From: an uncultured Gammaproteobacteria bacterium
GTDB taxonomy: Bacteria > Patescibacteriota > Microgenomatia > PFEM01 > DATLAM01
NCBI GenBank assembly: GCA_964566925.1
Contig: CAZMIZ010000003.1
Location: 30,792 to 94,791, forward strand
Direction of reading: 5' to 3'
DNA: 64,000 nucleotides
Shown piece after piece: positions 11,479-57,091 of this stretch. Below the pieces are notes generated by a model, which was not told the DNA's origin, made no database searches, and saw nothing but the letters and a program-made list of their open reading frames with translations. Position numbers and translations under genes: made by a program. Position 1 is the first letter of the stretch, and the number at the start of each line of letters is the position of its first letter.

Positions 11479-11480
11479 CT

Positions 11481-12632: not shown

Positions 12633-12703
12633 TTATTTATCCTTTGGGCAGGAAATCGGCAGAAGTAAACTTATTATAACTTATACCACCAATTAGTCAA
12701 TCA

Positions 12704-14062: not shown

Positions 14063-14063
14063 T

Positions 14064-20677: not shown

Positions 20678-21925
20678 TTATAACCCCACCTGCAAATAGG
20701 GGCAAATCGGACACTGATGGTAGTGGTGGCAAACAGTTTTTTGGCAACTCACTTTTTTACCTTGGAGAATGAGCATCACTCGCTCCATGTGTCTCAGGAG
20801 AGAACCTTTAAGATAAACCAAATCGTCTTTTTTAAGAATCTTTTTTAGGATTTCGGCCGCTGCCTGAACATCTTTAACCCAAAAAACTTTATCTGGGTTC
20901 ATTCCGTTTTTTTTGGCCTGTCCAGCCACTAATTTCTGTAAAGGACCAACGCTAATTAGATAATCAAGTTTAAGTTCGGCCACCTTCCTGCCTACCTCTC
21001 GATGACTGGTTTCCGCCAAATCCCCTAGCTCGCCCATTTCCCCTAAAACAGCAATCCGGTGACCTTTAACAGGTAAATCGGAAAGGGTCTCTAACCCGGC
21101 TATCGTGGAAGCCGGATTGGCCCGGAGGGCATCATTAAGAAGAACTGAACCCCGCGGTCCTTTTTCAACGCTCATCCTTCCCTTTAGGGGCTTCAGTTTT
21201 GCCAATCCCTTTTTAATTTCTGACCAGCTTAAGCCTAAATTTCTGCCAACCGCCGCCGCCGCCAAACACTCATAAACAAAATGCCGCCCAATCAGCCCGG
21301 TTTTAATCTTACACAATTTTGTCCTTAAGGATAATTTTGTGTAACTTAGCTTGAAACTTGTTCCTGAAAAATCAACCTCGATGTCTTCTGCTCTAAAATC
21401 ACAGTTTTCGGCGGTTCCATACCAAACAACTTTGGCTTTGGTTTTTTTCGCCATTGGCCGCACTTTTTGATCATCATAATTTAAAACCGCCAAGCCATTT
21501 TTAGGCAAAGCTTCAACCAGTTTCCCTTTTTCCTTAATGACCCCAGCCAAAGAGCCTAAAAGCTCTGGATCTGAATGAGTTGGGTTGATGCCGGTGACCA
21601 CCCCGATTTGGGGCTTAACCAAGCCAAGATGAAAATCCATTTCGTTCTTATGATCAACCCCGTATTCTAAAACCAAAATCTGGTGACCGGGACGGAGTTT
21701 TAAAAGGGTAATCGGCAGATTATAGACCGTATCCAGGTTGAGATCGGTTTGGAGGGTGTGGTGTCTTTCTGAAAGAACTTGGGTAATCGCCCGAGCGGTA
21801 TTGGTTTTACCGTAACTGCCGGTAATCCCAATAATCTTAACTTGGGGATTCAGCTTGAGCCAAAGTTTGGCGACCAAGCGGCGCGTTTGATGAAGGGGTT
21901 GTTTCCAGGCTGAAGTCTCGGCCAT
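20678..21925 (-). CDS. murF: UDP-MurNAc-tripeptide--D-Ala-D-Ala ligase MurF with an unusual Cys/His-rich C-terminal tail. Start uncertain: the ATG at 21925 is preferred, while the longer 22012 start would overlap the upstream gene by 55 nt
   Basis: P-loop GITGSYGKTNT and Mur ligase middle/C domains; tail CQKTVCHHYHQCPICPY. Confidence 0.8.
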   Translation of the reverse strand: MAETSAWKQPLHQTRRLVAKLWLKLNPQVKIIGITGSYGKTNTARAITQVLSERHHTLQTDLNLDTVYNLPITLLKLRPGHQILVLEYGVDHKNEMDFHLGLVKPQIGVVTGINPTHSDPELLGSLAGVIKEKGKLVEALPKNGLAVLNYDDQKVRPMAKKTKAKVVWYGTAENCDFRAEDIEVDFSGTSFKLSYTKLSLRTKLCKIKTGLIGRHFVYECLAAAAVGRNLGLSWSEIKKGLAKLKPLKGRMSVEKGPRGSVLLNDALRANPASTIAGLETLSDLPVKGHRIAVLGEMGELGDLAETSHREVGRKVAELKLDYLISVGPLQKLVAGQAKKNGMNPDKVFWVKDVQAAAEILKKILKKDDLVYLKGSLLRHMERVMLILQGKKVSCQKTVCHHYHQCPICPYLQVGL

Positions 21926-21957
21926 GAACTCTATTCTACCACGGGGGAGTGAAGAAT

Positions 21958-22311
21958 TTAAGCTTCTGTCTCTGTTAGTTCTTTTTTCTTGAAACCAAAT
22001 TTCTCTCTCCATTCATCAGCTTCTTCAGCCGTCAAGTTTCCTTGCGCCACTCCCAGATCAATTTCTCTTTTTACTTGACTGAAAAAACCTACTAGGTGCC
22101 CTTCTTGTAGAGATAAGTTAAATCTCTCTTCAAGCTCCGCAGGAGAAAGTTCGCTTGCTTCTTCAGCTATAACAACAAGCTCTCCTTGTCTCTCTGGGGA
22201 ACATTCAGACCCTCGGAAATAGCCTTGACTATTTTCATAGACCTCTTTAAAATAGGTCCCATCAAAATCTGACTTCCCTTTTACAGGTGTCGAGTTTTCT
22301 TTATCTTCCAT
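21958..22311 (-). CDS. Hypothetical acidic protein, 117 aa
   Basis: ORF only. Confidence 0.45.
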   Translation of the reverse strand: MEDKENSTPVKGKSDFDGTYFKEVYENSQGYFRGSECSPERQGELVVIAEEASELSPAELEERFNLSLQEGHLVGFFSQVKREIDLGVAQGNLTAEEADEWREKFGFKKKELTETEA

Positions 22312-22372
22312 TTCAGTTTTTATGAGCTTCTTCCAAAAAAATTATATCATTCTAGGCTAAATTAGCAAAAGG

Positions 22373-23026
22373 TTATGCTTCTATTGTCCCTAATTTAGAT
22401 ATGGCCTGCACCGCCTCTCTCTTTTGGATGATCCTCCCCTTTTTCCTATCGATAATTGATTCAAGTTCGGCCTTGGGTGCACCCTGGAAAAGGGCGGCTG
22501 AGAAAATATTGGCTAAGCCTTTGATACTCCTTACCCACCCTTTAAACTCCTCGCTTTTTCTATCAACGCCAATTTGGCCAGCGTATTCTCCTGAAAGAAT
22601 GTCCAAACAATTGTCAGCAACCTCAATTGCTTGGTCAAGGAAGCTTTGAGCGTGATGAACTTTTATTGGATCTTTTGACCTAGCTTTAGCTTTCTCAAGC
22701 TTTCCCAAATCTCGGGAATCAACATCAACTCTTAAACGGCTACCTTCTTGATACCTTGCATTCTTTAATAATCTCTCAGTCAAAGCCAGCTCGAAAATCG
22801 CCCCTTCAATGGGTAAAAAATCGTCTGGAGTAACAGGAAAAAATTTACTTCTCAACTCTTGTGCCTTATCAAGATGCTCTTTGGCTTTCTCCCAAAATAT
22901 TCCCTTTTTGTCTTCCAGCGCCGGGAAATAGGTTTCCTCAACCCTTTCTATAGCCAGAAAACCGCAGAGGACCTCCTCTGTTTTACTCAAGCTGGTTGTG
23001 GAAAACTTTTCGCGTTCAAACTTCAT
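22373..23026 (-). CDS. Hypothetical protein, 217 aa
   Basis: ORF only; overlaps the upstream GNAT gene by 11 nt, suggesting an operon. Confidence 0.5.
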   Translation of the reverse strand: MKFEREKFSTTSLSKTEEVLCGFLAIERVEETYFPALEDKKGIFWEKAKEHLDKAQELRSKFFPVTPDDFLPIEGAIFELALTERLLKNARYQEGSRLRVDVDSRDLGKLEKAKARSKDPIKVHHAQSFLDQAIEVADNCLDILSGEYAGQIGVDRKSEEFKGWVRSIKGLANIFSAALFQGAPKAELESIIDRKKGRIIQKREAVQAISKLGTIEA

Positions 23027-24023
23027 TGTTTCCTCTCTGTCTTAACTCCTGGGCGTATTGGCTGTAAAAATCTAATTCTTCGAATGCGCGGATATCTCCC
23101 ATGGCTGCAAAAGTCTGCATTTGCCTTCTCTTAAGCTCTAAATAACGATCCAGCTTGCCATCTCGATAAGCCATTTCCAAGGCTCTCCGAATCGCCTCAT
23201 AATGATCCGGACCAAAAGAATCGACCTCTCTCTTCCATCTGGTTAGCCAAAGTTCCTGGGCCTCGTGTTCAATCTCATAAGGAATGCAGTCTGTAAAATC
23301 CTCACCTAGTCCTCTCTTATAATGGTCGTAATTTATCACTATTGTCCTAATAGGGTCATTCCCCAACCTAAAGGCGGCGGCTCCGGCAAGTGGTTCTTCA
23401 CCAAGATATTCCCTGGTAATCATCACAAACTCTGGAGCCTCTAAAATTAGAGCTCTTTCTCTTTTTTTGGCTAAATACTTTTCTTCTAGTCCTTTTGACC
23501 AAAAGTAAAAAAGGTGATCTCCCCGGTCTTGGACCGGAAAATAACCAGCTCTTTCCAAAACCCTGGCTGAGGCCAGGTTATCTTCATGAACCTTAGCAAA
23601 AAGATCAGTATAACCCAGCTCATCAGAAACATAGGCGCTTAAAAGACGCACCGCTTCGGTCATGTATCCCTGACCCGTGAATTGGGAACCAAGATAATAG
23701 CCAATTTCCGCCCTGTCAGGGGTCAACTCATCTGGGGTCAAGTCAATGCTCCCGACCATCACCCCTTCTTGATTACGGATCGCTAACCAAAGATTTTTGG
23801 GATTCGGAGGATCAACGATGCTGTTAAGGACGAGCTCTAACGTAGGATACTTAGCGGCCGTCTGATCACCATATTGCGAGAGATGAGGCCTGTTAGCGTC
23901 AATCAAAGCAAAAATTTCTTCGGCGTCCTCTGGAGAGAACTTAACCAGGCGCACCCCCGAGTTGGGGGATAAAATCTCAAGAGGAACGGTAGAACCAGTG
24001 TTTCGCAAATCTTCTGCACCCAT
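23016..24023 (-). CDS. Two-domain protein: N-terminal GNAT N-acetyltransferase (RimJ/RimL-like) plus a C-terminal uncharacterised domain
   Basis: GNAT core pattern (IGYYLGSQFTGQGYMTEAVRLL...ARVLERAGY). Confidence 0.6.
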   Translation of the reverse strand: MGAEDLRNTGSTVPLEILSPNSGVRLVKFSPEDAEEIFALIDANRPHLSQYGDQTAAKYPTLELVLNSIVDPPNPKNLWLAIRNQEGVMVGSIDLTPDELTPDRAEIGYYLGSQFTGQGYMTEAVRLLSAYVSDELGYTDLFAKVHEDNLASARVLERAGYFPVQDRGDHLFYFWSKGLEEKYLAKKRERALILEAPEFVMITREYLGEEPLAGAAAFRLGNDPIRTIVINYDHYKRGLGEDFTDCIPYEIEHEAQELWLTRWKREVDSFGPDHYEAIRRALEMAYRDGKLDRYLELKRRQMQTFAAMGDIRAFEELDFYSQYAQELRQRGNNEV

Positions 24024-24094
24024 AGAAAAGTGAAATCAATTATATCTAGAAAGAAGCGAAAGATCAATGTTATAGGATATATATTGGCCAAGGA

Positions 24095-24562
24095 ATGGTA
24101 AAATTAATAAAAGAAATGGCCAGATCAGAAAGTTATTTTTATTTTGGCAGATTTTTAGAAGATTCGGAACGGAATAAGGAAATAATCCTGGCAGGCGAAT
24201 TCCTTAAACCCCTCCGGGTGGGAATCGAACACGGATATATTCAAACCGTGGACGATTTCTACGAAGAGCTGGAATCAGATCAGCAACTGGTTGGAACAGA
24301 GATTAATCTCGCTATCTCATTCGCTATTGTCGCTGTAGAAATGCAAGATGCTCTTGAAGAGAATCAGGCTGGCCAACCGCCTCTTGATTTTTGGGAACGC
24401 TACCATCTTTTTTCTCTCATCGGCAAAGCAATTGCCGACGATGAAAGAGTCTTTCTGCAATCAAACTTCCAGCCAGGAAAAGAAGAGGATGAAAAATTTA
24501 TAGAAATAGTGAGAAAAGTAATGGGAAAGGTTGAGGCGGAGATAAGCCAAATCGGCGACTAA
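24095..24562 (+). CDS. Hypothetical acidic protein, 155 aa
   Basis: ORF only. Confidence 0.45.
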   Translation: MVKLIKEMARSESYFYFGRFLEDSERNKEIILAGEFLKPLRVGIEHGYIQTVDDFYEELESDQQLVGTEINLAISFAIVAVEMQDALEENQAGQPPLDFWERYHLFSLIGKAIADDERVFLQSNFQPGKEEDEKFIEIVRKVMGKVEAEISQIGD

Positions 24563-24650
24563 GCTTCCTTTCATCTTTTTTCCAATTCCTTTATATTTCA
24601 CTTCAACAATTCTATCAAATCCAGAGGGAAATTTTCCGAGCCATTTTTAG

Positions 24651-25445
24651 TCAGATGGAGGAGATGGGTGCTGATAATAATCTCTCGAGAACTCTAGGAT
24701 TTTCTTTACTCGAAGAATAAAGTCCGAGATTAAAATCCTGGGCTACCCTGACGTCTAAATTTAAAATTTCTAGAGGACGCGACCTCGACAAAAGTTCTTC
24801 TCCTGAAATCTCCGGTTTCTCCTTTTTAATCTCGGCCAACGCTTCTCTTTGACTTAGCATGTTTAATTGGAGTAAATAAGGTTTGAGCTCATCATGATGA
24901 CGATCTAACGAAATAGAGCCCTGGCCAGTCTCTAAGGATTTAAGAACAAGCATCAGGTTTTGTTCAGAAACTACGGCCATCAAAAAGTCTTCCAAATGGC
25001 TAAAATAATCCGAGTAACCAAGAAAATAAATTAAGTCTGATCTACTTAACAAAGCCGGTCTATCATAAGCATGAGGATGGACTGTTCCTAAAACGACAAA
25101 ATCATATTTTCTGATTGTCCGCTTGCTGGCCTTTTCCAATTTTATCCACGTTCTTCCAAAATCAGGCCTACCCCCTCGTTGACCAGCAACAATACCAAAA
25201 CCCGGTTTATAAAAGAGGGGTTTGTAAGTTTCCATGCGCCTATTATCGAGTGAATATTGAAGTTCTTGTTGGAAAAAGCTTTCCAGTGTTTCATTTAGAG
25301 TAATCCGGAGAGGCAAAGAATCAAATGGGGGAAAAACTCCTTCCCGTAAACTTTCAAAAATGTCGTGAAGTTCGACCGGAGGGGCACCCGCAAATTCATA
25401 CCCTCTAGGAATTTTTATTTCTTGTGAAGGAGATTCATTCGTCAT
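24651..25445 (-). CDS. Hypothetical protein, 264 aa; contains HPHAYDRPALLSRSD, loosely JAB/MPN-like (HxH..S..D)
   Basis: ORF; the motif is off by one residue from the canonical JAMM spacing. Confidence 0.45.
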   Translation of the reverse strand: MTNESPSQEIKIPRGYEFAGAPPVELHDIFESLREGVFPPFDSLPLRITLNETLESFFQQELQYSLDNRRMETYKPLFYKPGFGIVAGQRGGRPDFGRTWIKLEKASKRTIRKYDFVVLGTVHPHAYDRPALLSRSDLIYFLGYSDYFSHLEDFLMAVVSEQNLMLVLKSLETGQGSISLDRHHDELKPYLLQLNMLSQREALAEIKKEKPEISGEELLSRSRPLEILNLDVRVAQDFNLGLYSSSKENPRVLERLLSAPISSI

Positions 25446-25508
25446 AAGATAAATGACCTTTTGGGCAGTCAGTAATTATACCACGAGGCATAGTTTTGGA
25501 GTAAAATT

Positions 25509-25769
25509 TTAGGGAAGTTCTCCTCTAGACATTCTTTTGCTGGCGTCTCCGGAGGTTCCAGTCCCTGGGGTACCTGATCCAGGCTGTGTTTCCTCAAGCT
25601 CGGTTTCAAGTCCCTCCTCTTTTTCCAATAAGTCCATCAGTTCTTCTCCTCCCGCAGTGCTCAGTTGACTTCTAACTGAGTCTAGCTCTTCAAGAAGTTT
25701 GGCCCTTTTTTGTTCGGGCGTCAATTTTCTCTTGCTTTTTAGATCTTCCTGCTTTTCTGAAAATGCCAT
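25509..25769 (-). CDS. Small acidic coiled-coil-like protein, 86 aa
   Basis: ORF only. Confidence 0.35.
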   Translation of the reverse strand: MAFSEKQEDLKSKRKLTPEQKRAKLLEELDSVRSQLSTAGGEELMDLLEKEEGLETELEETQPGSGTPGTGTSGDASKRMSRGELP

Positions 25770-25810
25770 TTCCCCTCCACGATAGGATTTTAAGTTTAAC
25801 GGACTGACGG

Positions 25811-26008
25811 CTACCTGGTTAATTTTCTATATTGGAGACACCTTCTCGCAAACTCAGCCCCATAGATTAAGGTCGGTCCTAAGGCTACTGGCCAATATCG
25901 GGAAGCCATCGCGCCGCCAAGTAAAAAAAGCCCAGAGATGGCCGTTTTCTCGTAGGCTCTTTTTTGCTCAAGATCGTTGCTGCTTGTTGGTGCCTGCTCT
26001 TTTCCCAT
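25811..26008 (-). CDS. Small protein, 65 aa, with a hydrophobic segment
   Basis: ORF only. Confidence 0.3.
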   Translation of the reverse strand: MGKEQAPTSSNDLEQKRAYEKTAISGLFLLGGAMASRYWPVALGPTLIYGAEFARRCLQYRKLTR

Positions 26009-26009
26009 T

Positions 26010-26027
26010 TGTGAAAATTATATCACA
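26010..26027. promoter_or_regulatory. Palindrome TGTGA-N8-TCACA in the divergent promoter region (CRP/FNR-like half-sites with non-canonical spacing)
   Basis: Read directly; a TTGACT-16-TATATT promoter for the 26111 gene lies 50 nt downstream. Confidence 0.35.
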
Positions 26028-26110
26028 AGGCAGGGTTTTAGGGGCCTAAATTAGCTGACAAACTAGCTAAATCTTGACTTTAACCTCGGAAATGATATAT
26101 TGGACCCAAG

Positions 26111-26449
26111 ATGATTCGGGTAGAAAACCCAATTTCCTGGTTCCGCCCCAAAAGACATTACCAAAAATTCGAAGAATTTGCTCAAGGATTAGACAATCAA
26201 GCGCTGGTTGAGAAAAGAGAAAAATACGACCACACTCTTCGGAATACAGCCATCATCTCGGGCCTAGGAGTAGCTGCTGGCGTTGGCGTGCTTGGGGTTT
26301 TAGCCCCTATCATTCCTGAAATTTGGTTGACAAGTGGCCTAATGGCTGGTGGTGTAAGTGCCATTGGACCTACAAGACATACCATTAGAGTGGGAGAAAA
26401 GGCCATCCTCAACGAAGAAATAGAAATAAGAAATTTACCTCAGAAATAA
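26111..26449 (+). CDS. Small membrane protein, 112 aa
   Basis: Gly/Ala-rich TM segments. Confidence 0.45.
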   Translation: MIRVENPISWFRPKRHYQKFEEFAQGLDNQALVEKREKYDHTLRNTAIISGLGVAAGVGVLGVLAPIIPEIWLTSGLMAGGVSAIGPTRHTIRVGEKAILNEEIEIRNLPQK

Positions 26450-26457
26450 ACATCTTT

Positions 26458-27045
26458 ATGGCAGAAACAAAAGGTTTAGCTCCAGCACCCCCAAAAGACC
26501 TCCAGCCTCTCCCAGAAATACCAGATCTTCAACAAAAATTTGAAGACCTTTTACAACAGTTTGTTTCTGAAGGGGGCAATCAAGAGGTTAGACAAGAAAT
26601 CGAAACATTTCAAGATGTAAATGAAGAGGGGGTTGAGCAAGCAATGTTCGTGGCGCCAGGTTGGTCAAAAGAAAGTCCTCCTAATGTTGGTGTCGCTTTT
26701 GAGGTTAGCCGAGGTCGCGCCAGCTACACCGGTAAATTTTATGAAAGCAATCCTCCCGCTTACGGAAGAGTAACAGCCAGTGAATTTCATTTCGATTCAG
26801 AAGGGGAAGGTAAAGGCATTTCAGGACCGCCAGGAATATTCGACCCACTAGGAGAGACATTAACTGATCGGTATGATGCTCCAATCATTCAAGCAGTAGC
26901 CAACGTTTTTAAAAAGAGAATCTTACATTCTTTAGAGGCTCGGGATCAAAAGAGAATAAGGGAACTAGTTCAAAAGGGTTATCGGCGCCGAAAGGGCTAT
27001 CCTCAAGTCTTCGATAAATTCTACGAACCCCAACCTGGCAGGTGA
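26458..27045 (+). CDS. Hypothetical protein, 195 aa
   Basis: ORF 9 nt after the previous gene. Confidence 0.45.
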   Translation: MAETKGLAPAPPKDLQPLPEIPDLQQKFEDLLQQFVSEGGNQEVRQEIETFQDVNEEGVEQAMFVAPGWSKESPPNVGVAFEVSRGRASYTGKFYESNPPAYGRVTASEFHFDSEGEGKGISGPPGIFDPLGETLTDRYDAPIIQAVANVFKKRILHSLEARDQKRIRELVQKGYRRRKGYPQVFDKFYEPQPGR

Positions 27046-27071
27046 AAGCAAGATTTTAATTTCTCAAAAAC

Positions 27072-27602
27072 TTAACCACCTGGACAGATATCTTCGGCCC
27101 AAAGGCCGCGGTCATTTTCTCTTGCCTCCTGTTCGGCTTCTCTAAATAACTCTTGATATTTGACATCCGGCGGATAGGTGGCGGTTTGAGCGTATCCCTG
27201 CCTTACCAGATAATCGTTGACGAATAAGTTATCCACATAGACATAGCGCAAAAGCCGATGATACTGATCCGTTTCGGAAACATCCTTTTCTAGCCTAACC
27301 TCTTTGCCTTCAACCAATTCTTTGTTCTTTTCGGTGGCCTCATCAGCCAAACAGCCGCTTTCCGGCGTATCAATGCCAATATAACGCACTCTTTCCCCAC
27401 CCTCGACTTCAATCGTATCCCCATCAATCACCCGAGTAACTGTGAATGTCTGTTCTTCAACCGGAGACGTCTCGATTGTCGGAGTTGGCTCTGAAGTAGT
27501 TTCTTTTGGACTAAAACCCTGGCCAAGAGCAAACCCAATAAGGAGCAACGCCCCACCAAGGATTACAAAAAGGATTTTCTTAGGAATCTTCACCTTAGTC
27601 AT
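27072..27602 (-). CDS. Membrane-anchored thermonuclease (staphylococcal nuclease/SNase family)
   Basis: N-terminal TM segment, then VTRVIDGDTIEV...RVRYIGIDTPE SNase core. Confidence 0.75.
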   Translation of the reverse strand: MTKVKIPKKILFVILGGALLLIGFALGQGFSPKETTSEPTPTIETSPVEEQTFTVTRVIDGDTIEVEGGERVRYIGIDTPESGCLADEATEKNKELVEGKEVRLEKDVSETDQYHRLLRYVYVDNLFVNDYLVRQGYAQTATYPPDVKYQELFREAEQEARENDRGLWAEDICPGG

Positions 27603-27885
27603 TTTTCTCCGCTCGACGGAGCTTAAGTTTTAGTTTTTTGAAAAAAAGAACGAAAGAGAAAATGACATACAAATAAACAACAATAACCCAATCGTCGTAT
27701 AAACCTCGAAGTGTAGGGGGCGTAACTAAAATGAAAAAGAATAATGCAAGGGGGAGATTCAAAAATGCGAATAAATTGATAATTCGCACTCTATTCATTG
27801 GGTATATAATAACATTTTTCGCGGAATTCTTACTTTTGCCATTTTTAGCCCCCGAATTTACACTGAGTTTGCCAAAGTGCCACAA
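27595..27885 (-). CDS. Small membrane protein, 96 aa, overlapping the thermonuclease start by 8 nt
   Basis: ORF with a TM segment. Confidence 0.4.
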   Translation of the reverse strand: MWHFGKLSVNSGAKNGKSKNSAKNVIIYPMNRVRIINLFAFLNLPLALFFFILVTPPTLRGLYDDWVIVVYLYVIFSFVLFFKKLKLKLRRAEKND

Positions 27886-27894
27886 TTTTAATCT

Positions 27895-28815
27895 CTACCT
27901 GTCTGGAGCGACTTCGCAGGATTCCTTAACAATTTCTAAAATATAATTAATCTTTTCCTCTTTTAAGACATCAATCCACCAAAGAGGAGTTTTCCCCCAT
28001 TCATAAGAAGCTGGGACTCTCTTAAAAAGCTTCTCCTTGTCTGATTTAAGCTTTTTCTTCCTGACATAGATTCTAAGTTTGTTTTGGTATACGTGAATAG
28101 AGGCAAAATTGTACCAATTAAATTTGTAACCGATGTAAAACTTAACTGGCTTTTCCTTGATATTCTCATCAATAGAGAAAATCTTTTCTCTTAACTTCTC
28201 AAACAACTCCCTAATTTTAGGCGAGGCCTTTTTCCTGTGATCTTCGATTGTATATTCTCTCACCTCACGACTAACGGTGGCGACGGCCTTACCTTTGGTT
28301 ACTGTTTTGATAGATTCTTTAGCTTCAGGGGATTTAAGTTGATTGAAAAGAATAAGATTATCTTCAAAAATTTCCACTTCCCACAACTCTATTGGCAAAT
28401 CCTTAAAACCAATTGCCCCTCGTTGATGAGGGGTAAAAGAAGGGGCGACGAATAAAACCCTGGATTGAGACCAGTCGACATCGCCGCGCTTTAGATTCTT
28501 TTTCTTCTTTTCATTGTATTCAAGAATGAAATCGGACTTATTATTGAGCATCAAGGAGAGATAGTTCAAACCTTGATCAACAACACTAAAACTTTGATCT
28601 CTCTTATATTCGATGACAACAAAGGAGCGCGTTTCTGAATCAAAAGCTAGGGTATCGATGTAGAAGTTATGGATTCCGAATTCACTGCTGATAAATTCTA
28701 AACCAAAAATTATTTCAAGGTTTTCCTCGGTTAGTTTCTGTAAATCCTTTTCAAAATCAAATTTCTTTTCTTTAACCTGGCTGAGTTTCTTATTCTTTAT
28801 CTGAAAAATCGGCAT
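27895..28815 (-). CDS. Putative PD-(D/E)xK-fold nuclease-like protein, 306 aa
   Basis: N-terminal FYIDTLAFD...(16 aa)...VVIEYK matches hh-D...ExK; Lys-rich C-terminal half. Motif-level only. Confidence 0.45.
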   Translation of the reverse strand: MPIFQIKNKKLSQVKEKKFDFEKDLQKLTEENLEIIFGLEFISSEFGIHNFYIDTLAFDSETRSFVVIEYKRDQSFSVVDQGLNYLSLMLNNKSDFILEYNEKKKKNLKRGDVDWSQSRVLFVAPSFTPHQRGAIGFKDLPIELWEVEIFEDNLILFNQLKSPEAKESIKTVTKGKAVATVSREVREYTIEDHRKKASPKIRELFEKLREKIFSIDENIKEKPVKFYIGYKFNWYNFASIHVYQNKLRIYVRKKKLKSDKEKLFKRVPASYEWGKTPLWWIDVLKEEKINYILEIVKESCEVAPDR

Positions 28816-28847
28816 TTGGGGATATTATAGCATGAGCAGGGTGGAAG

Positions 28848-29624
28848 TTAAGAGATCTTTTCTTGAATCATTGGCCCAAGCTGTTCAACCTCATACAAAA
28901 TCTCAGCGTTATTATCAGTAGTAATTTTATATCTCGCGTTTTGAATCTCAACGATTGTGGAAAAGCTTAACTTCCAAGCCTCCTCTCCCTCCGTTTTTAT
29001 GAAATTTATGACAGGAATGTTTGGAAGAGCATTGTTTTCTATGGCAAGGCCTATTGCCTTTGACACCCTTCGCTTTCGACGATCTCTCCATTCCTGTAGC
29101 CTAACCTGTTCTTCGTAAATAATTGTTGCAGTAAGAACAGTAAGGATTATTACAAGGATGTAGATTATTGCCTGTAAATATGTATAAAAGAGTGGAGGGT
29201 TCATTGACAAAGACATCCCAAGCCAAATAAAAATTAAGCCCAAAAATAGTATAGCCACTATAAAAATGAGAACCAGCCTATGATGATCTATTCTAAAAGG
29301 CGGCCCAACTCGTTTAACTTTCTTAATCTCTTCCGGTGTATGTCTTTGAGGGTTTATACGATCAAGATAGTCTCTGTATTTTTTATTCTGCCACCAAAAT
29401 GGCTGAATCGAAATAAATGGTCTCTGTCTATACCAGAAAATTACAAGAAATGAGACTAACAGCGTCAAAACTGACGCCGCTAGAAATACTTCTCTATTTA
29501 AGAATATTCCAGCCGTAGTACCTGGAAACAACAGATAAAAAAACTGAATCAGCGGGAGCGCATAAGAGAGAAAGCCGGCTAAGCTTTTAGAAATTTCATT
29601 TACACTTTCTTTTGTTTTGTCCAT
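28848..29624 (-). CDS. Membrane protein (about 4 TM) with a cytoplasmic C-terminal domain, 258 aa
   Basis: Hydrophobic segments; no motif recognised. Confidence 0.5.
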   Translation of the reverse strand: MDKTKESVNEISKSLAGFLSYALPLIQFFYLLFPGTTAGIFLNREVFLAASVLTLLVSFLVIFWYRQRPFISIQPFWWQNKKYRDYLDRINPQRHTPEEIKKVKRVGPPFRIDHHRLVLIFIVAILFLGLIFIWLGMSLSMNPPLFYTYLQAIIYILVIILTVLTATIIYEEQVRLQEWRDRRKRRVSKAIGLAIENNALPNIPVINFIKTEGEEAWKLSFSTIVEIQNARYKITTDNNAEILYEVEQLGPMIQEKIS

Positions 29625-29635
29625 TAATTTATTAA

Positions 29636-29667
29636 ATCAAAAAACAAAGCCTGCTTTCTGAGCAGGC
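29636..29667 (-). terminator. Rho-independent terminator after the RM gene (stem GCCTGCT/AGCAGGC, then TTTGTTTTTTGATTT)
   Basis: Hairpin 29649-29667 plus T-run read on the minus strand. Confidence 0.6.
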
Positions 29668-29773
29668 AACTTGATTGTACACTTTAAGTTATTAAAGGTC
29701 AACTTTTCGTAATTCCAATTTCTCGATTTAAATCAAATTTTTCTCAACTTCCGGGTGAAGTTTGGCGAGTTGG

Positions 29774-32287
29774 CTATGTCGTTATATCGCCGAATTCACT
29801 TCTTAGCTTTTTAATAGCTTGTTGTGCCCCCCATTTCTTTCCAAATGCTTGGCGTATTCTTTCCGAAATATATTTTCTTTTTTTACGACTTTTAGAGACG
29901 GGTAGATAAATTTCTTTCCATCTATTCCCAATATTCGGAAGAGTTGTTTCTATAAAGATTTTGTTGCGCAGCTGTTTTTGGGCTAGTTCATGAGATAGTA
30001 AATAAATTAAGTAGTAAGGGTTTATATCCCACTGGTTCTTATCATTGATTACCCTGATTACAAGCAATTCCCTGGTTAATAAAATTTCGTTTTCGTCGGG
30101 AGAAACCATCGCTACTGTGCCAATTCTGTAACTTCCTCTTCTAACGAAAATAATATCTTTTTCTTTAAGGCTAACTCCGCTGCCCTTTATCTTTAAATAC
30201 ATCTTTCGGGGAATCAAAGACGTCGGGTTTTTGTAAATCTCCCAATTAACAATATCCTTAACCCTTATATACGGAACTTCCCCTCTGCCTTTATAATGTC
30301 CAGGAGGAGAACCATGTCCATCGGAATATTCGACTACTTTATGCCTAATTAATTTCGATAAGCCTACCATCTCAAAACTTCCTTCCTTGGCAATTTTTTT
30401 CAGCTCTTTTTCTCTTTGCCCCCAATAATAGCGAGGAATGTAGATGTCCGTTTTAATTGCGGAGGTGTTGATAGCAAAAAGATTTTTATTACCTTTTTTA
30501 TCTGGGTTGTTTATTTCTTCCCTTATTATTTCTGTGTCGTCCCATAATTCTTCTGTAAAGCCTTTTGTCTTTTGGTCAAATCTATATATTGGCTTGCCGT
30601 TGTGGTCATGTCCAACCTCCTCGGCTACTGCCATGATAATTTTCTCTTCTTGGGGTTTGTTTTTTTGTAACACTAAAAGCATAGTTTTAGCATTACAGTG
30701 GGGTCTAAATGTATTGTGTGCAAGATCAATAATTGCTTTTATATTGTGCTTTTTTAGAAATTGTAAGATATAGCGGGTCTTTGGCGCATGGAAATATGTC
30801 TCAGGTAAAACTATGCCCAATATACCCCCATCTTTAAGAAGTTGTAAGCATCTCTCAATAAAGAGAATTTGAGGTTCCTCGCTATCTTTAAGTTGGGCTG
30901 TTTTCGCATAGCCTGTCCCTGATTTTTTCCACCGGTAAGCAAGGTCATATTGTTTAAGTTTTTCTTCTCCTTCTACTTTTATCTTTGAACCAAAGGGAGG
31001 GTTAGTCAATACAATATCAAACGAGCCAAGCTGTATTTTGTCTCTAGCTTGCATATCCCAATTTTTGGGACTATCAAGGCTGTCTTCACAAAAAATACCG
31101 CCTTTTCCATCCCCAACTATCGCCATATAAGCCTTAGTGACTTTACTCAAGAAATAATCTTTATCGACGCCCTTAAAATTAGAATTGGCCACTGTTAGCT
31201 TTTCTAGCTCGATATTAGTTTTCTTCCATTCATATCTTTTCCCTTGATTCTCAATCTTATTCCATACATACCTTAAACTGTCAATCAAAAATCCTCCTGA
31301 CCCACAAGCAGGATCAATGATAAGATGTTTTGGCGAGGGATCAACTAATCTTACAAGGGTTTGAATCACGTTCCGCGGAGTAAAAAATTGTCCCTGAGAT
31401 CCCTTTAACGCTGGGCCTATAAAAACTTCAAAGGCCTCAGCTATAACATCCCTCTCTGCGTCCGTTAAACAGAAGTTTTGCAGTTCACCCACAATGTAAG
31501 TTAAGGATCGGGCATCCAAATTTAGTGAGTCGCCTACATCTATAATCTCGGGGTATCTTTTCTTAACTTTCTTAAACAGGTGAAGAATTCTTTCTTTTAC
31601 TTCTCCAGTGCTCTCTTTTATTCCAGCCCTGAATTGTACTATATTGTCTTGTTTAGTAAATTTTTCATCATAAATCTTGCAAAAAATAACGTTAATCAAC
31701 TGTTGAGCAAGAACCTCGTCTCTAGTAGCGCCCACAGCCATTCCTGCTAAATAATTCCTCATAGCATTAAACGTAGATTTTAAGTTACGAGGAGGCTTTA
31801 AGTCTTTCCTTTTAAACAAGCCTATATCTGCTATTCTTTGGCCTGCTCGAGGGATAATTGGAATCTCCTCGAAGTAAACTTTTCCCTCTTTCTCTGTTTT
31901 TTTGAGAAAGAGCCTTTCCTTTCCGTTAAACCAAACACCTAGTTGAGCTTCGGACAGTCTCAGGTAGTCTTTCAACTGTGATTCTCCGTCTTTTCTAGTC
32001 TTTTTTTTACATTCAACTATTATCCATAAATTATCATCGATCTTTCTCTCTGACTTAAAAACAGCAATATCTACCGGGTATTCTTTCTTTTTATCAGAAG
32101 GTCTTGCTTTTACTCTCCATTGGGAATGGGTCTGTATTTGTGTTTTCTTATAGCCATAATCTTCGACAAGGGATTTAGCGAATACCTGAACAGCCTCGAT
32201 TTCTTCTGGAGTTGCCTTTACCCACTTATTAGTAATATAGTCTTGGATGTGCCCTTCCTTAGTTTCAACCCTTTTCTTCTTTGCCAT
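29774..32287 (-). CDS. Single-chain Type IIG (MmeI-like) restriction-modification enzyme: N-terminal PD-(D/E)xK endonuclease, gamma-class N6-adenine MTase, and a C-terminal target-recognition region
   Basis: VDIAVF...IIVECKK nuclease motif, MTase motif I IDPACGSGGFL, motif IV NPPFG, about 380 aa after motif IV. Region markedly AT-rich. Confidence 0.65.
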   Translation of the reverse strand: MAKKKRVETKEGHIQDYITNKWVKATPEEIEAVQVFAKSLVEDYGYKKTQIQTHSQWRVKARPSDKKKEYPVDIAVFKSERKIDDNLWIIVECKKKTRKDGESQLKDYLRLSEAQLGVWFNGKERLFLKKTEKEGKVYFEEIPIIPRAGQRIADIGLFKRKDLKPPRNLKSTFNAMRNYLAGMAVGATRDEVLAQQLINVIFCKIYDEKFTKQDNIVQFRAGIKESTGEVKERILHLFKKVKKRYPEIIDVGDSLNLDARSLTYIVGELQNFCLTDAERDVIAEAFEVFIGPALKGSQGQFFTPRNVIQTLVRLVDPSPKHLIIDPACGSGGFLIDSLRYVWNKIENQGKRYEWKKTNIELEKLTVANSNFKGVDKDYFLSKVTKAYMAIVGDGKGGIFCEDSLDSPKNWDMQARDKIQLGSFDIVLTNPPFGSKIKVEGEEKLKQYDLAYRWKKSGTGYAKTAQLKDSEEPQILFIERCLQLLKDGGILGIVLPETYFHAPKTRYILQFLKKHNIKAIIDLAHNTFRPHCNAKTMLLVLQKNKPQEEKIIMAVAEEVGHDHNGKPIYRFDQKTKGFTEELWDDTEIIREEINNPDKKGNKNLFAINTSAIKTDIYIPRYYWGQREKELKKIAKEGSFEMVGLSKLIRHKVVEYSDGHGSPPGHYKGRGEVPYIRVKDIVNWEIYKNPTSLIPRKMYLKIKGSGVSLKEKDIIFVRRGSYRIGTVAMVSPDENEILLTRELLVIRVINDKNQWDINPYYLIYLLSHELAQKQLRNKIFIETTLPNIGNRWKEIYLPVSKSRKKRKYISERIRQAFGKKWGAQQAIKKLRSEFGDITT

Positions 32288-32356
32288 ATTCGGGTTTTGT
32301 TCGTATATCTAGACTACCTTCTTTAAGAATCTTTGTCAAGAGCTAGTCTCGTCCTA

Positions 32357-32389
32357 ATTCTACCTTATAAATTTGCTTTCAGCAACTTA
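32357..32389 (-). promoter_or_regulatory. Promoter/operator module copy 1 (TTGCTG-17-TAGAAT, with inverted repeat TTGCT-TTC-AGCAA over the -35) upstream of the RM gene
   Basis: 29-nt repeat 32361-32389 identical at 28 of 29 positions to 32736-32764. Confidence 0.5.
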
Positions 32390-32437
32390 TCACGTCAGAC
32401 GTGACAAGCAGGCCAAGCCACGCTTGTGTTAGGGTAT

Positions 32438-32472
32438 GATGTATGATTTAAGATTTAAGATTGAAGATTGAT
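32438..32472. repeat. Five tandem degenerate heptamers: GATGTAT GATTTAA GATTTAA GATTGAA GATTGAT
   Basis: Read directly; lies between the small regulator ORF and the RM promoter. Confidence 0.5.
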
Positions 32473-32500
32473 GAGGTTCTTGATTTCCTTAATCTCGTGC

Positions 32501-32713
32501 CTATTGAGGCCATTCAGAATAGGGTAACTGAGCGTCCAAGTAAGTGTCTTCGGGAGCCGCATCGGGAAATCTAATTCCTGCCGGTCCTTCTAATTTCGGT
32601 CTGAAAATCTTTCCTCCCTTAGTAACTAACTCCACAGCTGCCAAATTTAAAAACTGGCTTGCAGGAACAATCATACCAACAACTCTTCCTCTCTCTGGCC
32701 CTTTTTCTGGCAT
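32501..32713 (-). CDS. Small AbrB/MazE-like (swapped-hairpin) DNA-binding protein, about 70 aa; candidate controller of the RM system
   Basis: RGRVVGMIVPASQFLNLAAVELVTKGGKIFRP parallels MazE/AbrB (GNSPAVRIPATLMQALNL..DEV....GKLIIEP). Own copy of the promoter/operator module and a GAGGTG RBS. Confidence 0.4.
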   Translation of the reverse strand: MPEKGPERGRVVGMIVPASQFLNLAAVELVTKGGKIFRPKLEGPAGIRFPDAAPEDTYLDAQLPYSEWPQ

Positions 32714-32731
32714 CTCTTTCACCTCGCTCTT

Positions 32732-32764
32732 ATTTTACCCTATAAATTTGCTTTCAGCAACTTA
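32732..32764 (-). promoter_or_regulatory. Promoter/operator module copy 2 (TTGCTG-17-TAAAAT with the same TTGCT-TTC-AGCAA palindrome) upstream of the small regulator ORF
   Basis: See copy 1. Confidence 0.5.
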
Positions 32765-32807
32765 AAGGGCAGGCCATACCATGATTAAGGTTTAGTGTCT
32801 AGAAGGG

Positions 32808-33128
32808 TTAGAAAAAGTGTTTTTGAAGTTCAATCAATTTCTCACAGCGATATTCATCACAATCTTTACAATTTTTAATCTTTTTCTTCAAGCCACAGTT
32901 TCTCACTTCACAACTATGGCAATAAAAATAAACAGCATCTTTAGACAAACAACCATGACAGTTAATCTCCTCTGGTTTAACCGGAGGCCGATTGCGGCTG
33001 GTAACGTACCTTTTCGTCCACTCTTTGGCCGTTTTTTCTCTCAGTTTATGATCGTTGTTTTTGGTGGCAATAAAAGCCGGACAAGAAGAGCAATCTAAAC
33101 CACACATGGCAAGGTGTTTTTGGGCCAT
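32808..33128 (-). CDS. Cys-rich DUF3795-family protein
   Basis: MCGLDCSSCPAF...CHGCLSKD...CHSCEVRNCG...CKDCDEYRCE, the typical DUF3795 Cys pattern. Confidence 0.6.
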   Translation of the reverse strand: MAQKHLAMCGLDCSSCPAFIATKNNDHKLREKTAKEWTKRYVTSRNRPPVKPEEINCHGCLSKDAVYFYCHSCEVRNCGLKKKIKNCKDCDEYRCEKLIELQKHFF

Positions 33129-33204
33129 CTTGAGTTAATTTTATCCTTTTCTTGCAATAACCTCAAGGTAAACTACTTAAGAAGGGGGAATGAAGATTTT
33201 TCGC

Positions 33205-33552
33205 CTACATTCTTTCTGGGCCTTTGGGGGTAGAGGTTTCTAGGGAAAGGGTACCCTCAGCCATCTGTTCTTGGTAATTACGAACAAACTCTACTGCCGC
33301 GGGAACTCTGGTCCCTCCCTCTCTTACCGCTTCAACGAAACTATCAATGATTGCTTGTTGTTGTTCTGGAGAAAGACTCCTGACCATCCTGACCCAGGAA
33401 GCGCCTCTTTTGTTACGAACAATTATTGGCTCTTTTAACTCTTTGCCAGGCCATCTCTCCTTTTCTTTAAGTCTTATAATTCTAGTGCCAACATCACAAG
33501 GCCTAACCCCAATTCCTTCTGCAAATTCAGCGACAGTGGTCATTTGAGCCAA
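33205..33552 (-). CDS. Hypothetical protein with a putative N-terminal HTH (excisionase/MerR-like: TTVAEFAEGIGV)
   Basis: ORF; weak HTH pattern. Confidence 0.4.
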   Translation of the reverse strand: MAQMTTVAEFAEGIGVRPCDVGTRIIRLKEKERWPGKELKEPIIVRNKRGASWVRMVRSLSPEQQQAIIDSFVEAVREGGTRVPAAVEFVRNYQEQMAEGTLSLETSTPKGPERM

Positions 33553-33578
33553 TTATAACCTATAGCGTCAAAATTTTC

Positions 33579-34619
33579 CTATTTCTTTAAAGCCAGTTTA
33601 ATGATCCGGTCAAGAAGCTTAGGATAGCTGATGCCGGCCGCAGCCGCTTCTTTAGGTAGTAAAGAAACAGGCGTTAACCCCGGAATGGTATTGATTTCCA
33701 AAACATAGGGCTTGCCTTGAGAAATAATCATGTCTACCCTGCCAAAACCCTGGCATTCAATCGCCTGGAAAACTTTGATCGCCAACGCCTGGACTTTTTT
33801 GGTTAATCTTTTAGCAATTCTGGCTGGGACAATCTCATCACACTGAGTTTCATCATATTTAGCCTGATAATCAAAAAATTCTCTTTTGGGCAGGATTTCA
33901 ATCACCGGCAAAGCAACCGGGTCTTCGTTACCCAAAACCCCGCAGGAAACTTCAATCCCTTTAAGATATTTTTCAATAATAATCTTTGAACTATAGGAAA
34001 AAGCCAGTTTTAAAGCCGGGCCCAACTCTTTTTGATTATGAACCAGGCTAATGCCCACGCTGGAACCCTGATCGCTGGGTTTGATTACAAAGGGAAATTT
34101 AAATTTTTTCAGGATTTTTTTGATAGGATCTTTTTTAGTCAAGACTAGGTAGTCACCAATCGGGATGCCTTCCTGCTCCATGACCTTCTTAAACATGATT
34201 TTATTCATGCCGATGCTCGAGGCCATCACGCCAGCCCCGGTGTAGGGGATTCCCGTTAATTCGAGCATCCCCTGAATCGTCCCGTCTTCGCCAAAAGGTC
34301 CATGCATGGCTATAAAAACTACCTGAGGCGATTGGCCAGGGATTTGTAAAGGCAAGCGCTTACCGCTAGGCAAAAGGGCTTTGCCGCCTTTAATCTTTTT
34401 CTTATGATCAGTTTTCTCTACCCCGGCAGGGGAGTGGAGTAAAATTTGGTTCGGGCTTTTGAGCTGCCATCTTTCCCCGTCTCGGGAAATAACCACCGGC
34501 ATCACCTGATATTTCCGCTTATCCAAATGGCGAACCACTTCCCTACCGGAAACCAAGGAAACTTCATGCTCCGGGGTTTTACCCCCCATCAAGACAATCA
34601 CTCTTGTTTTTCCCATCAA
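33579..34619 (-). CDS. ddl: D-alanine--D-alanine ligase
   Basis: N-terminal EHEVSLVSG and ATP-grasp pattern. Confidence 0.85.
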   Translation of the reverse strand: MMGKTRVIVLMGGKTPEHEVSLVSGREVVRHLDKRKYQVMPVVISRDGERWQLKSPNQILLHSPAGVEKTDHKKKIKGGKALLPSGKRLPLQIPGQSPQVVFIAMHGPFGEDGTIQGMLELTGIPYTGAGVMASSIGMNKIMFKKVMEQEGIPIGDYLVLTKKDPIKKILKKFKFPFVIKPSDQGSSVGISLVHNQKELGPALKLAFSYSSKIIIEKYLKGIEVSCGVLGNEDPVALPVIEILPKREFFDYQAKYDETQCDEIVPARIAKRLTKKVQALAIKVFQAIECQGFGRVDMIISQGKPYVLEINTIPGLTPVSLLPKEAAAAGISYPKLLDRIIKLALKK

Positions 34620-47606: not shown

Positions 47607-48038
47607 TTAAATTCCTAGTTCGGTCAATCTTTCGGCAATTGATTCACTCTGACTTTCAATCTTTTTAAGATAATGATTAAATTGTTTTTTGCCCCAAATT
47701 TCAATTCGATCTAGGGCGCCGGCAACGATTATCTTTTTTTCAATTTGAGCCATTTTTCGTAATCTTTCCGGAATTAAAATTCTGCCTTGACGATCCAACT
47801 CAACATCAAAAGCGCCAAAAGTTAAAAGTCGAGCAAAAGCCCGGGCATCTTTCCTGGTCAAAGGGGCGGCCGCGAGCTTTTTGGCTAAAATCTCCCATTT
47901 CCTTTTAGAAAAAAGGAATAAACAGCCGTCAAGTCCCTCAGTAAGAACACCTCCGGTAGCCAACTCTTTCCGAAACTTTTTCGGGATCGAGAGCCTCCCT
48001 TTAGCTTCAAGATGGTGTTCATAATGGCCGAGAAACAT
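47607..48038 (-). CDS. mraZ: Transcriptional regulator MraZ
   Basis: MFLGHYEHHLEAKGRLSIP and duplicated MraZ domains. Confidence 0.9.
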   Translation of the reverse strand: MFLGHYEHHLEAKGRLSIPKKFRKELATGGVLTEGLDGCLFLFSKRKWEILAKKLAAAPLTRKDARAFARLLTFGAFDVELDRQGRILIPERLRKMAQIEKKIIVAGALDRIEIWGKKQFNHYLKKIESQSESIAERLTELGI

Positions 48039-57081: not shown

Positions 57082-57091
57082 AAAAATTTCG

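Follow-up and report, generated by a model that had tools for sequence, protein, structure and literature searches.

Bacteria of the candidate phyla radiation (CPR; Patescibacteria) have small, poorly understood genomes, in which mobile elements are seldom recognised and the means by which accessory and anti-phage genes are gained and retained are a matter of debate. The locus described here is a concrete case, in which accessory genes and a candidate restriction and defence module occupy a site that has been filled repeatedly, between the essential cell-wall genes ddl and murF within the division and cell wall (dcw) cluster of an uncultured member of the Microgenomatia. We analysed a 64,000-nucleotide stretch of this genome (hereafter the window; contig CAZMIZ010000003.1 of assembly GCA_964566925.1, positions 30,792 to 94,791), asking how the block of genes between ddl and murF came to be there and how murF is transcribed with the block in place. 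The evidence makes it likely that the block is the content of a long-lived, recombinase-independent exchange hotspot at the ddl/murF junction, assembled by several separate gains and probably also by replacements. A plasticity or defence hotspot flanked by core genes is of a known kind; its place, inside the dcw cluster of a CPR bacterium, is unusual.

The dcw cluster comprises 23 genes, all on the minus strand, running from mraZ at 48038 down to ftsZ at 11481, and it is uninterrupted except for the ddl-murF block. Its upstream half consists of mraZ (47607-48038), rsmH, an ftsL-like open reading frame (ORF), ftsI, murE, glmU, pgeF, murC, murB, murA, glmS, alr and ddl, and its downstream half of murF, dgkA, mraY, murI, murD, ftsW, murG, an ftsQ-like ORF, ftsA and ftsZ (11481-12632). 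This arrangement corresponds to the definition of a dcw cluster (co-oriented mraZ-rsmH-ftsL-ftsI-mur/mraY/ftsW, then ftsQ-ftsA-ftsZ), and its order is kept in relatives. Pfam matches were obtained for 21 of the 23 genes; mraZ is named by its position, and the ftsL-like and ftsQ-like ORFs, which have no Pfam match, lie at the expected positions and match relatives. The initial annotation had described every gene from mraZ to ftsZ outside the block as a recognisable cell-wall or division gene on one strand, which these matches bear out. The core flanks of the block are ddl, encoding D-Ala-D-Ala ligase (33579-34619, minus; Pfam Dala_Dala_lig_N and Dala_Dala_lig_C, E = 1e-30 and 8e-61), and murF (20678-21925, minus; Pfam Mur_ligase_M and Mur_ligase_C), which encodes 415 amino acids (aa) from an ATG at 21925.

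Between the ddl stop and the murF start lies a gap of 11,653 bp (21926-33578) with 17 ORFs of at least 50 aa, none of them a cell-wall or division gene. Its content had been summarised initially as a GNAT fusion, nucleases, a restriction-modification system, a DUF3795 gene and three plus-strand genes, and this is what Pfam and the ORFs show. Apart from the GNAT, SNase, DUF5655/PDC-S18, 837-aa and DUF3795 proteins, no block ORF has a family in Pfam, NCBIfam, PADLOC or PHROGs, with only weak matches for a 258-aa protein; no paralogs of block genes were found elsewhere in the window. Some of the small ORFs, including some on the murF side, may not be genes.

Whether the block is an insertion was addressed with about 15 informative loci (numbered with the prefix L), drawn from a Ddl scan of genome and metagenome collections and from contigs encoding close MurF homologs. 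MurF of the window is 61-79% identical to its relatives, except for L092 at 38%, and Ddl is 53-86% identical where the gene is complete; L162 has 134 residues of the Ddl C-terminus, which are 93% identical. A junction lacking the block, which the initial annotation had proposed to look for by synteny, was found in six relatives (L001, L083, L084, L085, L089 and L091), where ddl and murF are 8-90 nucleotides (nt) apart. The Saccharibacteria locus L003 also has ddl followed by murF, and in a neighbour-joining tree of MurF the empty states fall on deeper branches. Taken together, the abutting genes of the six relatives, the order in L003 and the deep placement of the empty states indicate that ddl-murF adjacency is most likely ancestral and the block derived by insertion.

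Other relatives carry different genes at the same place. A 209-aa gene on the opposite strand fills the junction of L081 and L082 (33% identical to each other), a DUF218 gene that of L092, and genes for DUF8173 and DUF952 proteins that of L171-L174. The filling of L086/L087 is 4.3 kb long (11100-15350) and encodes a Cas4-like PD-(D/E)XK nuclease, a radical-SAM/SPASM protein, a 53-aa ORF, a PCMT-type O-methyltransferase and an ATP-cone protein, the middle three of which look like a small modification cluster of the kind that makes ribosomally synthesised and post-translationally modified peptides. In the nearest relative, the ddl side (L162) holds DUF3795 and DUF8173 genes, and the murF side (L169/L170) a gene similar to the window's 217-aa gene, an APH-family kinase gene and a 76-aa gene. 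The lineage shows at least seven junction states, with at least six fillings in related genomes besides that of the window, and the fillings are mutually unrelated. Proteins of the window's block have no match in the ddl-murF loci of relatives other than the DUF3795 protein and the 217-aa protein, and no remnants of the relatives' junction genes were found in the window, the 217-aa gene excepted. The DUF8173 protein (L162, 965-1210; L171, 3947-5125), which the window lacks, combines bactofilin-like repeats (GDVYAAGG...) with a signal peptide and a membrane domain at its C-terminus; it is 94% identical between L162 and L171, though their Ddl and MurF are more diverged.

The reverse history, in which a large gene set stood between ddl and murF from the start and was lost to differing extents in the relatives, is improbable. 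It would accommodate the filled junctions of the three closest genomes (the window, L169/L170 with L162, and L171) and the presence of the DUF3795 and 217-aa genes in two of those three. Against it stand the empty junctions spread over deeper branches and the ddl-murF order of the Saccharibacteria locus L003, the unrelated nature of the fillings, the lack of remnants of other fillings in the window, and a compositionally foreign defence core (below) whose proteins have their closest relatives in unrelated contexts. The initial annotation had held that the same gene content across the whole lineage, with uniform composition, would speak for an ancestral arrangement, and neither the relatives nor the GC content show this.

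The ddl/murF junction also stands apart from its neighbours in a survey of 14 loci, in which gene ends were extrapolated from tblastn matches and every junction was measured, a small sample compared by simple counts. The ddl/murF junction was filled in five of 11 relatives. Six other junctions were filled in none of the six to eight relatives counted, among them murB/murA, murF/mraY and alr/ddl (none of eight each), ftsW/murG (none of seven) and ftsA/ftsZ (none of six). The sole other repeatedly variable junction was mraY/murD, the ORFs of which were examined in L083. There (6676-10616) mraY is separated from a divergent murD, whose product is 29-33% identical to MurD of the window, by the gene for a 455-aa MurL-like UDP-MurNAc-L-Ala-L-Glu epimerase (NCBIfam NF041275, E = 7e-69, below the cut-off), and an Fe-alcohol dehydrogenase is encoded there as well. 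The gene murI is absent from L083, L084 and L086, and present with a canonical murD in the window (17047-19169), L169 and L092. The arrangement in L083 is a cell-wall pathway swap, not accessory cargo, and two routes to D-glutamate seem to alternate in the dcw cluster of one lineage.

The nearest relative is informative about how the block was assembled. Its murF-side contigs L169/L170 encode proteins 95% (FtsZ), 89% (MraY) and 78% (MurF) identical to those of the window, and L170 comes from the same ENA sample as L162 (ERZ27256834). On the ddl side, the window's DUF3795 gene (32808-33128, minus; Pfam DUF3795, E = 2e-18) is 88.7% identical to the gene directly 3' of ddl in L162, and a promoter-like site upstream of it (TTGAGG-17-TAAAAT, 33138-33166) is kept there as well. 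DUF3795 is the oldest resident of this side, and no gene of the block comes closer to the host in codon usage (z = +1.8). On the other side, the 217-aa hypothetical gene (22373-23026, minus; no family match) is an old resident, its product being 56% identical to that of a truncated gene at the start of L169/L170, upstream of murF. In the relative it is separated from murF by the APH-family and 76-aa genes, not by the gene that holds this place in the window, which encodes an acidic 117-aa hypothetical protein (21958-22311, minus), is absent from all relatives and is preceded by a promoter-like site, TTGCTA-16-TGaTATAAT (22341-22368).

A further difference lies immediately next to ddl, where a 115-aa ORF with a TTG start (33205-33552, minus) begins 26 nt past the ddl stop. 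The nearest relative lacks it: the distance between ddl and the DUF3795 promoter is 35 nt in L162 and 410 nt in the window, so that the 115-aa gene is a separate gene-sized indel of 375 nt. The label 'HTH-like', for helix-turn-helix, that this ORF had been given initially could not be verified. As an HTH protein or excisionase it found no support, with no match in Pfam, NCBIfam, PADLOC or PHROGs, no family match even at E values up to 5, and a single-sequence AlphaFold model too uncertain to be used (predicted local distance difference test score 43). Because the two ends of the block are common to the nearest relative and the interior is different, their common ancestor already had an occupied junction, the content of which several events have since changed.

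Base composition also varies along the block. Its guanine-plus-cytosine (GC) content is 0.430 from 21926 to 27600, 0.369 from 27601 to 32350 and 0.414 from 32351 to 33578. The middle segment, a low-GC module of 4.75 kb, lies about 5.9 standard deviations below the remainder of the window, where all 429 windows of the same length outside the block average 0.434 ± 0.011 with a minimum of 0.406; the lower GC reported initially is thus real, but confined to this segment. Synonymous codon usage, scored leave-one-out against 47 host genes, likewise deviates from that of the host, block genes being less host-like as a group (Mann-Whitney p = 1.9e-5). The deviation is heterogeneous: DUF3795 is fully host-like, a 264-aa gene has z = 0.0, and eight ORFs lie below -1.9, including the predicted restriction enzyme and membrane protein of the low-GC module.

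The initial annotation read the block as one accessory insertion of about 11.5 kb. Insertion against an ancestral ddl-murF adjacency stands, given the six empty relatives; a single unit does not, the block being a mosaic with ends shared with a relative. The corresponding model, in which one island arrived once and has since lost its integrase and attachment repeats, draws on the absence of the block from the six relatives with abutting genes, on the atypical average codon usage and partly low GC, and on the proximity of relatives of two block genes to serine recombinases elsewhere (L164, L167). We consider it unlikely, since the block falls into three compositional segments with heterogeneous codon usage, the nearest relative has both terminal genes but other genes beside them, the 115-aa gene is an indel of its own, and no recombinase remnant or flanking repeat was found in the block.

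Several searches bear on this last point and agree with the earlier statement that no integrase, tRNA site or flanking repeats are present. Searches of the block ORFs (50 aa or longer) with Pfam, NCBIfam, PHROGs and PADLOC detected no domain of a recombinase, transposase or integrase, and no block protein matched an excisionase family. The block contains no Rfam match and has no tRNA near it, the sole tRNA of the window being at 4569-4643. No direct repeats join its two edges, the best pairs (20-31 nt, 71-83% identity) being at chance level, and the genes of the window outside the cluster (RecO, ParB, tRNA synthetases, glycosyltransferases and a second SEDS protein) include nothing mobile. Of the features of a classical integrative island, the block thus has absence from relatives and a distinct composition (in GC only in part), and it has neither the integrase nor the tRNA or attachment repeat; individual pieces may still have been inserted by a recombinase that was later lost. 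An origin from a phage or plasmid was considered and dropped: PHROG similarity of the block was restricted to an acetyltransferase match of the GNAT gene (phrog_1249, E = 3.2e-10) and a weak membrane-protein match, two block proteins tried against IMG/VR (one of them from the plus-strand pair at 26111-27045) had no viral relatives, and megablast of the whole block against phage and plasmid collections returned nothing.

That foreign DNA was joined into a dcw contig during assembly or binning is very improbable. The contig is metagenome-assembled and was seen once, at 90% identity a single block protein is not a singleton, and independent confirmation is limited to the murF side. That confirmation comes from a Logan assembly of the same run (SRR14817123), one contig of which (L176) is identical at 100% to 21841-25267, from the 264-aa gene through the 117-aa gene into murF, so that the murF-side junction is not a scaffolding artefact. 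In relatives, moreover, DUF3795 directly follows ddl (L162) and a homolog of the 217-aa gene precedes murF (L169, L170), and several block genes share with the host a layout, described next, in which a -10 box stands beside the start codon.

How murF is transcribed behind such a block depends on where the gene begins. The deposited MurF protein has 444 residues, from a start at 22012, which is also the start used in the initial annotation. Translation from ATG 21925 gives an N-terminus, MAETSAWKQ, that all relatives share (MAETxxWKQ), and directly ahead of this codon stands a conserved -10 box; on these two grounds ATG 21925, not 22012, is most likely the murF start, and the 29 N-terminal residues of the deposited protein are probably not translated. 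The gap therefore extends from 21926 to 33578, and murF does not overlap the 117-aa ORF.

The box is an extended -10 element, TGgTAGAAT (21933-21941, minus), that ends 7 nt before the ATG, the window reading TGgTAGAAT-agagttc-ATG. Of 13 genomes, 12 (the window, L001, L081-L086, L089, L091, L169 and L171) have a box of the form TGnTA(A/G)(A/G)AT whose end lies 6-9 nt from the murF start, and upstream of it the loci have unrelated sequence. The stop codon of ddl in L083 and L084 is the TGA of this box. No Shine-Dalgarno sequence lies between box and start codon. With the spacing of a sigma-70-type promoter, transcription would begin at or next to the ATG and yield a leaderless mRNA, so that murF probably heads its own, leaderless transcript from 21933-21941. 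The host seems to use this layout more widely. Within the window, 13 of 62 starts have a TANN[AT]T hexamer that ends 5-10 nt ahead of them, compared with 5.5% of internal ATGs (p = 2.7e-5), and the TG-extended form precedes five of 62 starts, compared with 0.4% of internal ATGs (p = 6e-6), which suggests widespread leaderless transcription in this genome. Examples are murI (TGcTATAAT, 8 nt before ATG 19169) and the genes starting at 28815, 26008, 26111 and 4707.

Transcription from ddl would have to cross two convergent gene pairs and a terminator-like hairpin at 29649-29667 before reaching murF. With the conserved box in place, these barriers make read-through from ddl an unlikely driver of murF; murF and the genes that follow it are most likely transcribed from the box at 21933-21941, possibly also from the site at 22341-22368.

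These features suggest how the junction could tolerate cargo. With an extended -10 element of its own abutting its start, murF, which opens the essential half of the cluster that runs to ftsZ, would not be cut off by insertions upstream of about position -18, and expression of ddl, as the last gene of the upstream unit, would be unaffected by what follows. A pre-existing unit boundary at the murF promoter would thus explain why cargo accumulates at ddl/murF. Block genes would be expressed from promoters of their own, several of the type with a -10 box next to the ATG. Constant flanks, changing cargo and the lack of scars, as in the hotspots of Pseudomonas aeruginosa discussed below, make homologous recombination the likeliest route, and cargo would probably arrive and be swapped by recombination on the ddl and murF arms after uptake of DNA. 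It is possible, and we suggest it tentatively, that the site is a lineage-wide, recombinase-free one in the dcw cluster of the Microgenomates, a 'docking bay' for defence and accessory genes, in genomes with hardly any non-essential DNA, that is kept open by a leaderless murF transcribed from a box overlapping the ddl stop, so that both halves of the cluster would stay expressed whatever DNA recombined in between.

Several points weigh against the hotspot interpretation and its mechanism. The sample is small, at about 15 loci, most of them 60-80% identical in MurF, and the branching order of MurF comes from a quickly made neighbour-joining tree that carries no support values. For the closest relative the two sides of the junction lie on separate short contigs (L162 and L170), so more of the block may be shared with it than is visible, and the most distant locus, L092, lacks the murF box. 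The murF-side half of the block has a host-like GC content (0.430) and may therefore be old or derived from close relatives. The proposed promoters, terminator and leaderless transcript rest on sequence features, the promoters and terminator being consensus matches backed by conservation, and recombination on the flanks is a default reading, taken from the lack of mobility marks.

The low-GC module (27601-32350) is a compositionally foreign, small candidate defence cluster. Codon usage is atypical across it, with z = -2.5 for an 837-aa, -2.9 for a 258-aa, -1.1 for a 306-aa and -2.8 for a 96-aa product. The largest gene (29774-32287, minus) encodes a predicted fusion of nuclease and methyltransferase, with Pfam domains HSDR_N_2 (residues 34-143) and N6_Mtase (278-563) and the motifs PVD...VECK (71-94), DPACGSGGF (at 325) and NPPF (at 429). 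Among solved structures RM.BsaXI is its best relative (E = 1.6e-26), and PADLOC matched it to MTase_II (E = 1e-94) and to REase_MTase_IIG models (E = 2e-29). The C-terminal ~270 aa have no assigned domain and are of a size that could fit a target-recognition domain. In its nuclease-type and methyltransferase parts the predicted enzyme is built like type IIG/IIB restriction-modification proteins, to which it may belong. Membership in a MADS system was considered and rejected, as the NCBIfam MAD2 score was 402 bits against a cut-off of 720 and no other mad genes were found.

More than 8000 homologs of this protein, ~58-60% identical over the full length, occur across unrelated phyla, in taxa that include Arcobacter, Cycloclasticus, Bacteroidota, Saccharimonas and a Woesearchaeota archaeon. 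The two closest (71% and 67%) have an SduA_C nuclease gene downstream or are flanked by serine recombinase and HEPN genes, and neither is followed by the membrane protein and PDC-S18 genes found in the window. We read this as a promiscuous predicted restriction gene that travels with changing partners, and the varying nuclease-like neighbours suggest that the enzyme may work with a partner.

Downstream of the restriction gene, 107 nt past its stop, lies the hairpin mentioned above (29649-29667, minus; GCCTGCTCAGAAAGCAGGC then TTTGTTTTTT), which is GC-rich and followed by a T-run. The 258-aa predicted membrane protein (28848-29624, minus) has hydrophobic stretches, a weak PADLOC match to Aga2 and a weak PHROG match to a membrane protein (E = 0.007). 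The 306-aa protein after it (27895-28815, minus) matches PADLOC PDC-S18 over residues 1-299 of 306 (E = 1.8e-106) and Pfam DUF5655 (E = 2.6e-8); its N-terminus is NucS-like, a weak link (Pfam NucS_C, E = 0.004; NCBIfam, E = 0.0065), and TGcTATAAT stands 8 nt ahead of its ATG. The module ends with a small, low-GC hydrophobic ORF of 96 aa, or shorter from an internal Met (27595-27885, minus), which may not be a real gene. By profile matches, the module contains two clustered defence genes, the predicted restriction enzyme and PDC-S18, with the 258-aa gene between them, in keeping with a defence island, in which two or more such genes are grouped.

A promoter-like direct repeat of 42 nt occurs twice in the window. 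Copy 1 (32348-32389, minus) coincides with the GC break of the module and precedes the gene for the restriction enzyme by ~60 nt, and copy 2 (32723-32764, minus; TAAGTTGCTGAAAGCAAATTTATAGGGTAAAAT...) just upstream of a 70-aa ORF (32501-32713, minus) that has no family match and whose ATG at 32713 is preceded by a GAGGTG ribosome-binding site. The two copies, where none would be expected by chance, are 88% identical and identical in their first 24 nt, and read TAAGTTGCTGAAAGCAAATTTATA(A/G)GGTA(G/A)AAT, with a -35 element TTGCTG, a 17-nt spacer and a -10 element TAGAAT or TAAAAT; a small palindrome, TTGCTgaaAGCAA, covers the -35 element. The repeat may be a shared operator-promoter or a captured promoter. 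The notion that it is a marker travelling with the restriction gene was discarded, the repeat being absent from the loci of the closest enzyme homologs and from all 175 fetched loci.

Between the low-GC module and the 217-aa gene, genes on both strands alternate. An SNase (thermonuclease) homologue (27072-27602, minus; Pfam SNase, E = 1.6e-19; NCBIfam NucI-like, E = 2e-25, below the cut-off) has an N-terminal hydrophobic segment and is probably exported. Convergent with it are two plus-strand hypothetical genes of 112 and 195 aa (26111-27045, at 26111-26449 and 26458-27045), which have no family; TGaTATATT stands 9 nt ahead of the first ATG (26111). Three minus-strand hypothetical genes of 65, 86 and 264 aa follow (24651-26008), again with no family matches. 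The 264-aa protein (24651-25445) has a single homologous cluster, at 37% identity, among 1.84 billion representative proteins. Ahead of both this gene and its lone homolog (L175, on a 1.2-kb contig) stands an extended -10 box, and their leaders are alike, each with the sequence ACTGCCC(A/G)AAAGG. An HPH...S..D string had suggested a JAMM/MPN metalloprotease, and this assignment was abandoned because the first His is not conserved in the sole homolog. The third plus-strand gene of the block, encoding a 155-aa hypothetical protein (24095-24562), is convergent with the 264-aa gene and divergent from the gene for the GNAT fusion (23016-24023, minus). The latter is a RimJ/RimL-type acetyltransferase (Pfam Acetyltransf_3, E = 2e-23, residues 25-161) with a ~170-aa uncharacterised C-terminal half, and its homologs are ~50% identical over the GNAT half only and lie in accessory contexts other than dcw clusters. 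In L163 (8557-10840) a GNAT homolog (56% over the GNAT half) is two genes from an SNase homolog (35%), in a neighbourhood of accessory genes (Fic, AAA_14/DUF4143 and CopG-antitoxin), so that the pairing of GNAT and SNase may recur.

An acetyltransferase, an exported nuclease and membrane proteins beside cell-wall genes could also be taken as part of a cell-envelope programme, recruited to the dcw cluster and regulated with it. The other additions to the cluster are indeed related to the cell wall (glmS, glmU, alr, murI, dgkA and pgeF), and in relatives the junction encodes, on the same strand, a bactofilin-like membrane protein (DUF8173). We regard this reading as highly improbable, for outside the nearest relative no block gene is conserved at the junction, three genes run opposite to the cluster, the core consists of a restriction enzyme and a defence candidate, and GNAT and SNase homologs elsewhere are found in accessory neighbourhoods outside dcw clusters.

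Outside the cluster, the window also holds a second SEDS (FtsW/RodA) gene (6750-7829), a ParB gene (5255-6100) and a run of glycosyltransferase and sugar-nucleotide genes (53119-60616), such genes flanking the dcw cluster. Strong positive AT skew was observed at 6.5-8, 15.5-17, 19-20.5 and 59.5-63 kb, stretches that partly coincide with minus-strand genes for membrane proteins (the second SEDS protein, ftsW and mraY).

The predicted promoter fused to the murF start offers a testable reason why the slot is harmless to the cell. If the pattern is general, conserved operon boundaries that carry leaderless promoters could point to the places where bacteria with small genomes keep their variable genes, and such sites could aid the discovery of new defence genes among unannotated ORFs. 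A point of annotation also follows: of the 444 aa deposited for MurF, the first 29 probably do not belong to the protein.

Leaderless transcription from -10 boxes that abut the start codon is established for many genes of Actinobacteria, Deinococcus-Thermus and archaea. The murF box resembles these promoters in ending 6-9 nt before the start with no Shine-Dalgarno sequence, a likeness in sequence layout. A paper that touches on leaderless mRNA as well as on CPR (PMC12641178) gives no account of CPR genes that are leaderless, and a limited literature search found no description of such genes, or of insertions or hotspots in dcw clusters, in CPR bacteria.

The defence module can be compared with known systems at two points. 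Like type IIG/IIB enzymes (the MmeI family and RM.BsaXI, PDB 8w0p), the 837-aa protein has a PD-(D/E)XK-type N-terminus and a gamma-class N6-adenine methyltransferase; unlike RM.BsaXI, which needs a separate S subunit, it has no such subunit here, and the families with which it scores best are the MTase_II models and MAD2 of the MADS system, the latter below the cut-off. The 306-aa protein matches PDC-S18 over its full length and is adjacent to a restriction enzyme, as is typical of defence genes; PDC-S18 is itself a computational defence candidate, and a literature search found no paper mentioning it.

As a whole, the block resembles classical integrase-mediated islands in its absence from relatives, its deviant composition and codon usage and its accessory and defence genes, and differs from them in having no integrase, tRNA target or flanking repeats and in being a mosaic whose ends are common to a relative. 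A closer parallel is provided by the core defense hotspots cDHS1 and cDHS2 of Pseudomonas aeruginosa, for which it has been proposed that homologous recombination between conserved flanks transfers the region in its entirety (Johnson et al., 2023; PMC10250203). There as here, core flanks are constant and the cargo, defence systems included, varies in size and content between related genomes. The flanks in our case are two essential dcw genes of a small-genome CPR bacterium and not a site adjacent to a tRNA or transfer-messenger RNA gene, the comparison is at genus to family level (61-79% MurF identity, 38% for L092) rather than among strains of one species, and the cargo is small (0.6-11.7 kb) and mostly not recognisable as defence. 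Beyond what cDHS1 and cDHS2 offer, the ddl/murF junction suggests a reason for its permissiveness, which we propose to be the murF promoter that abuts the start codon.

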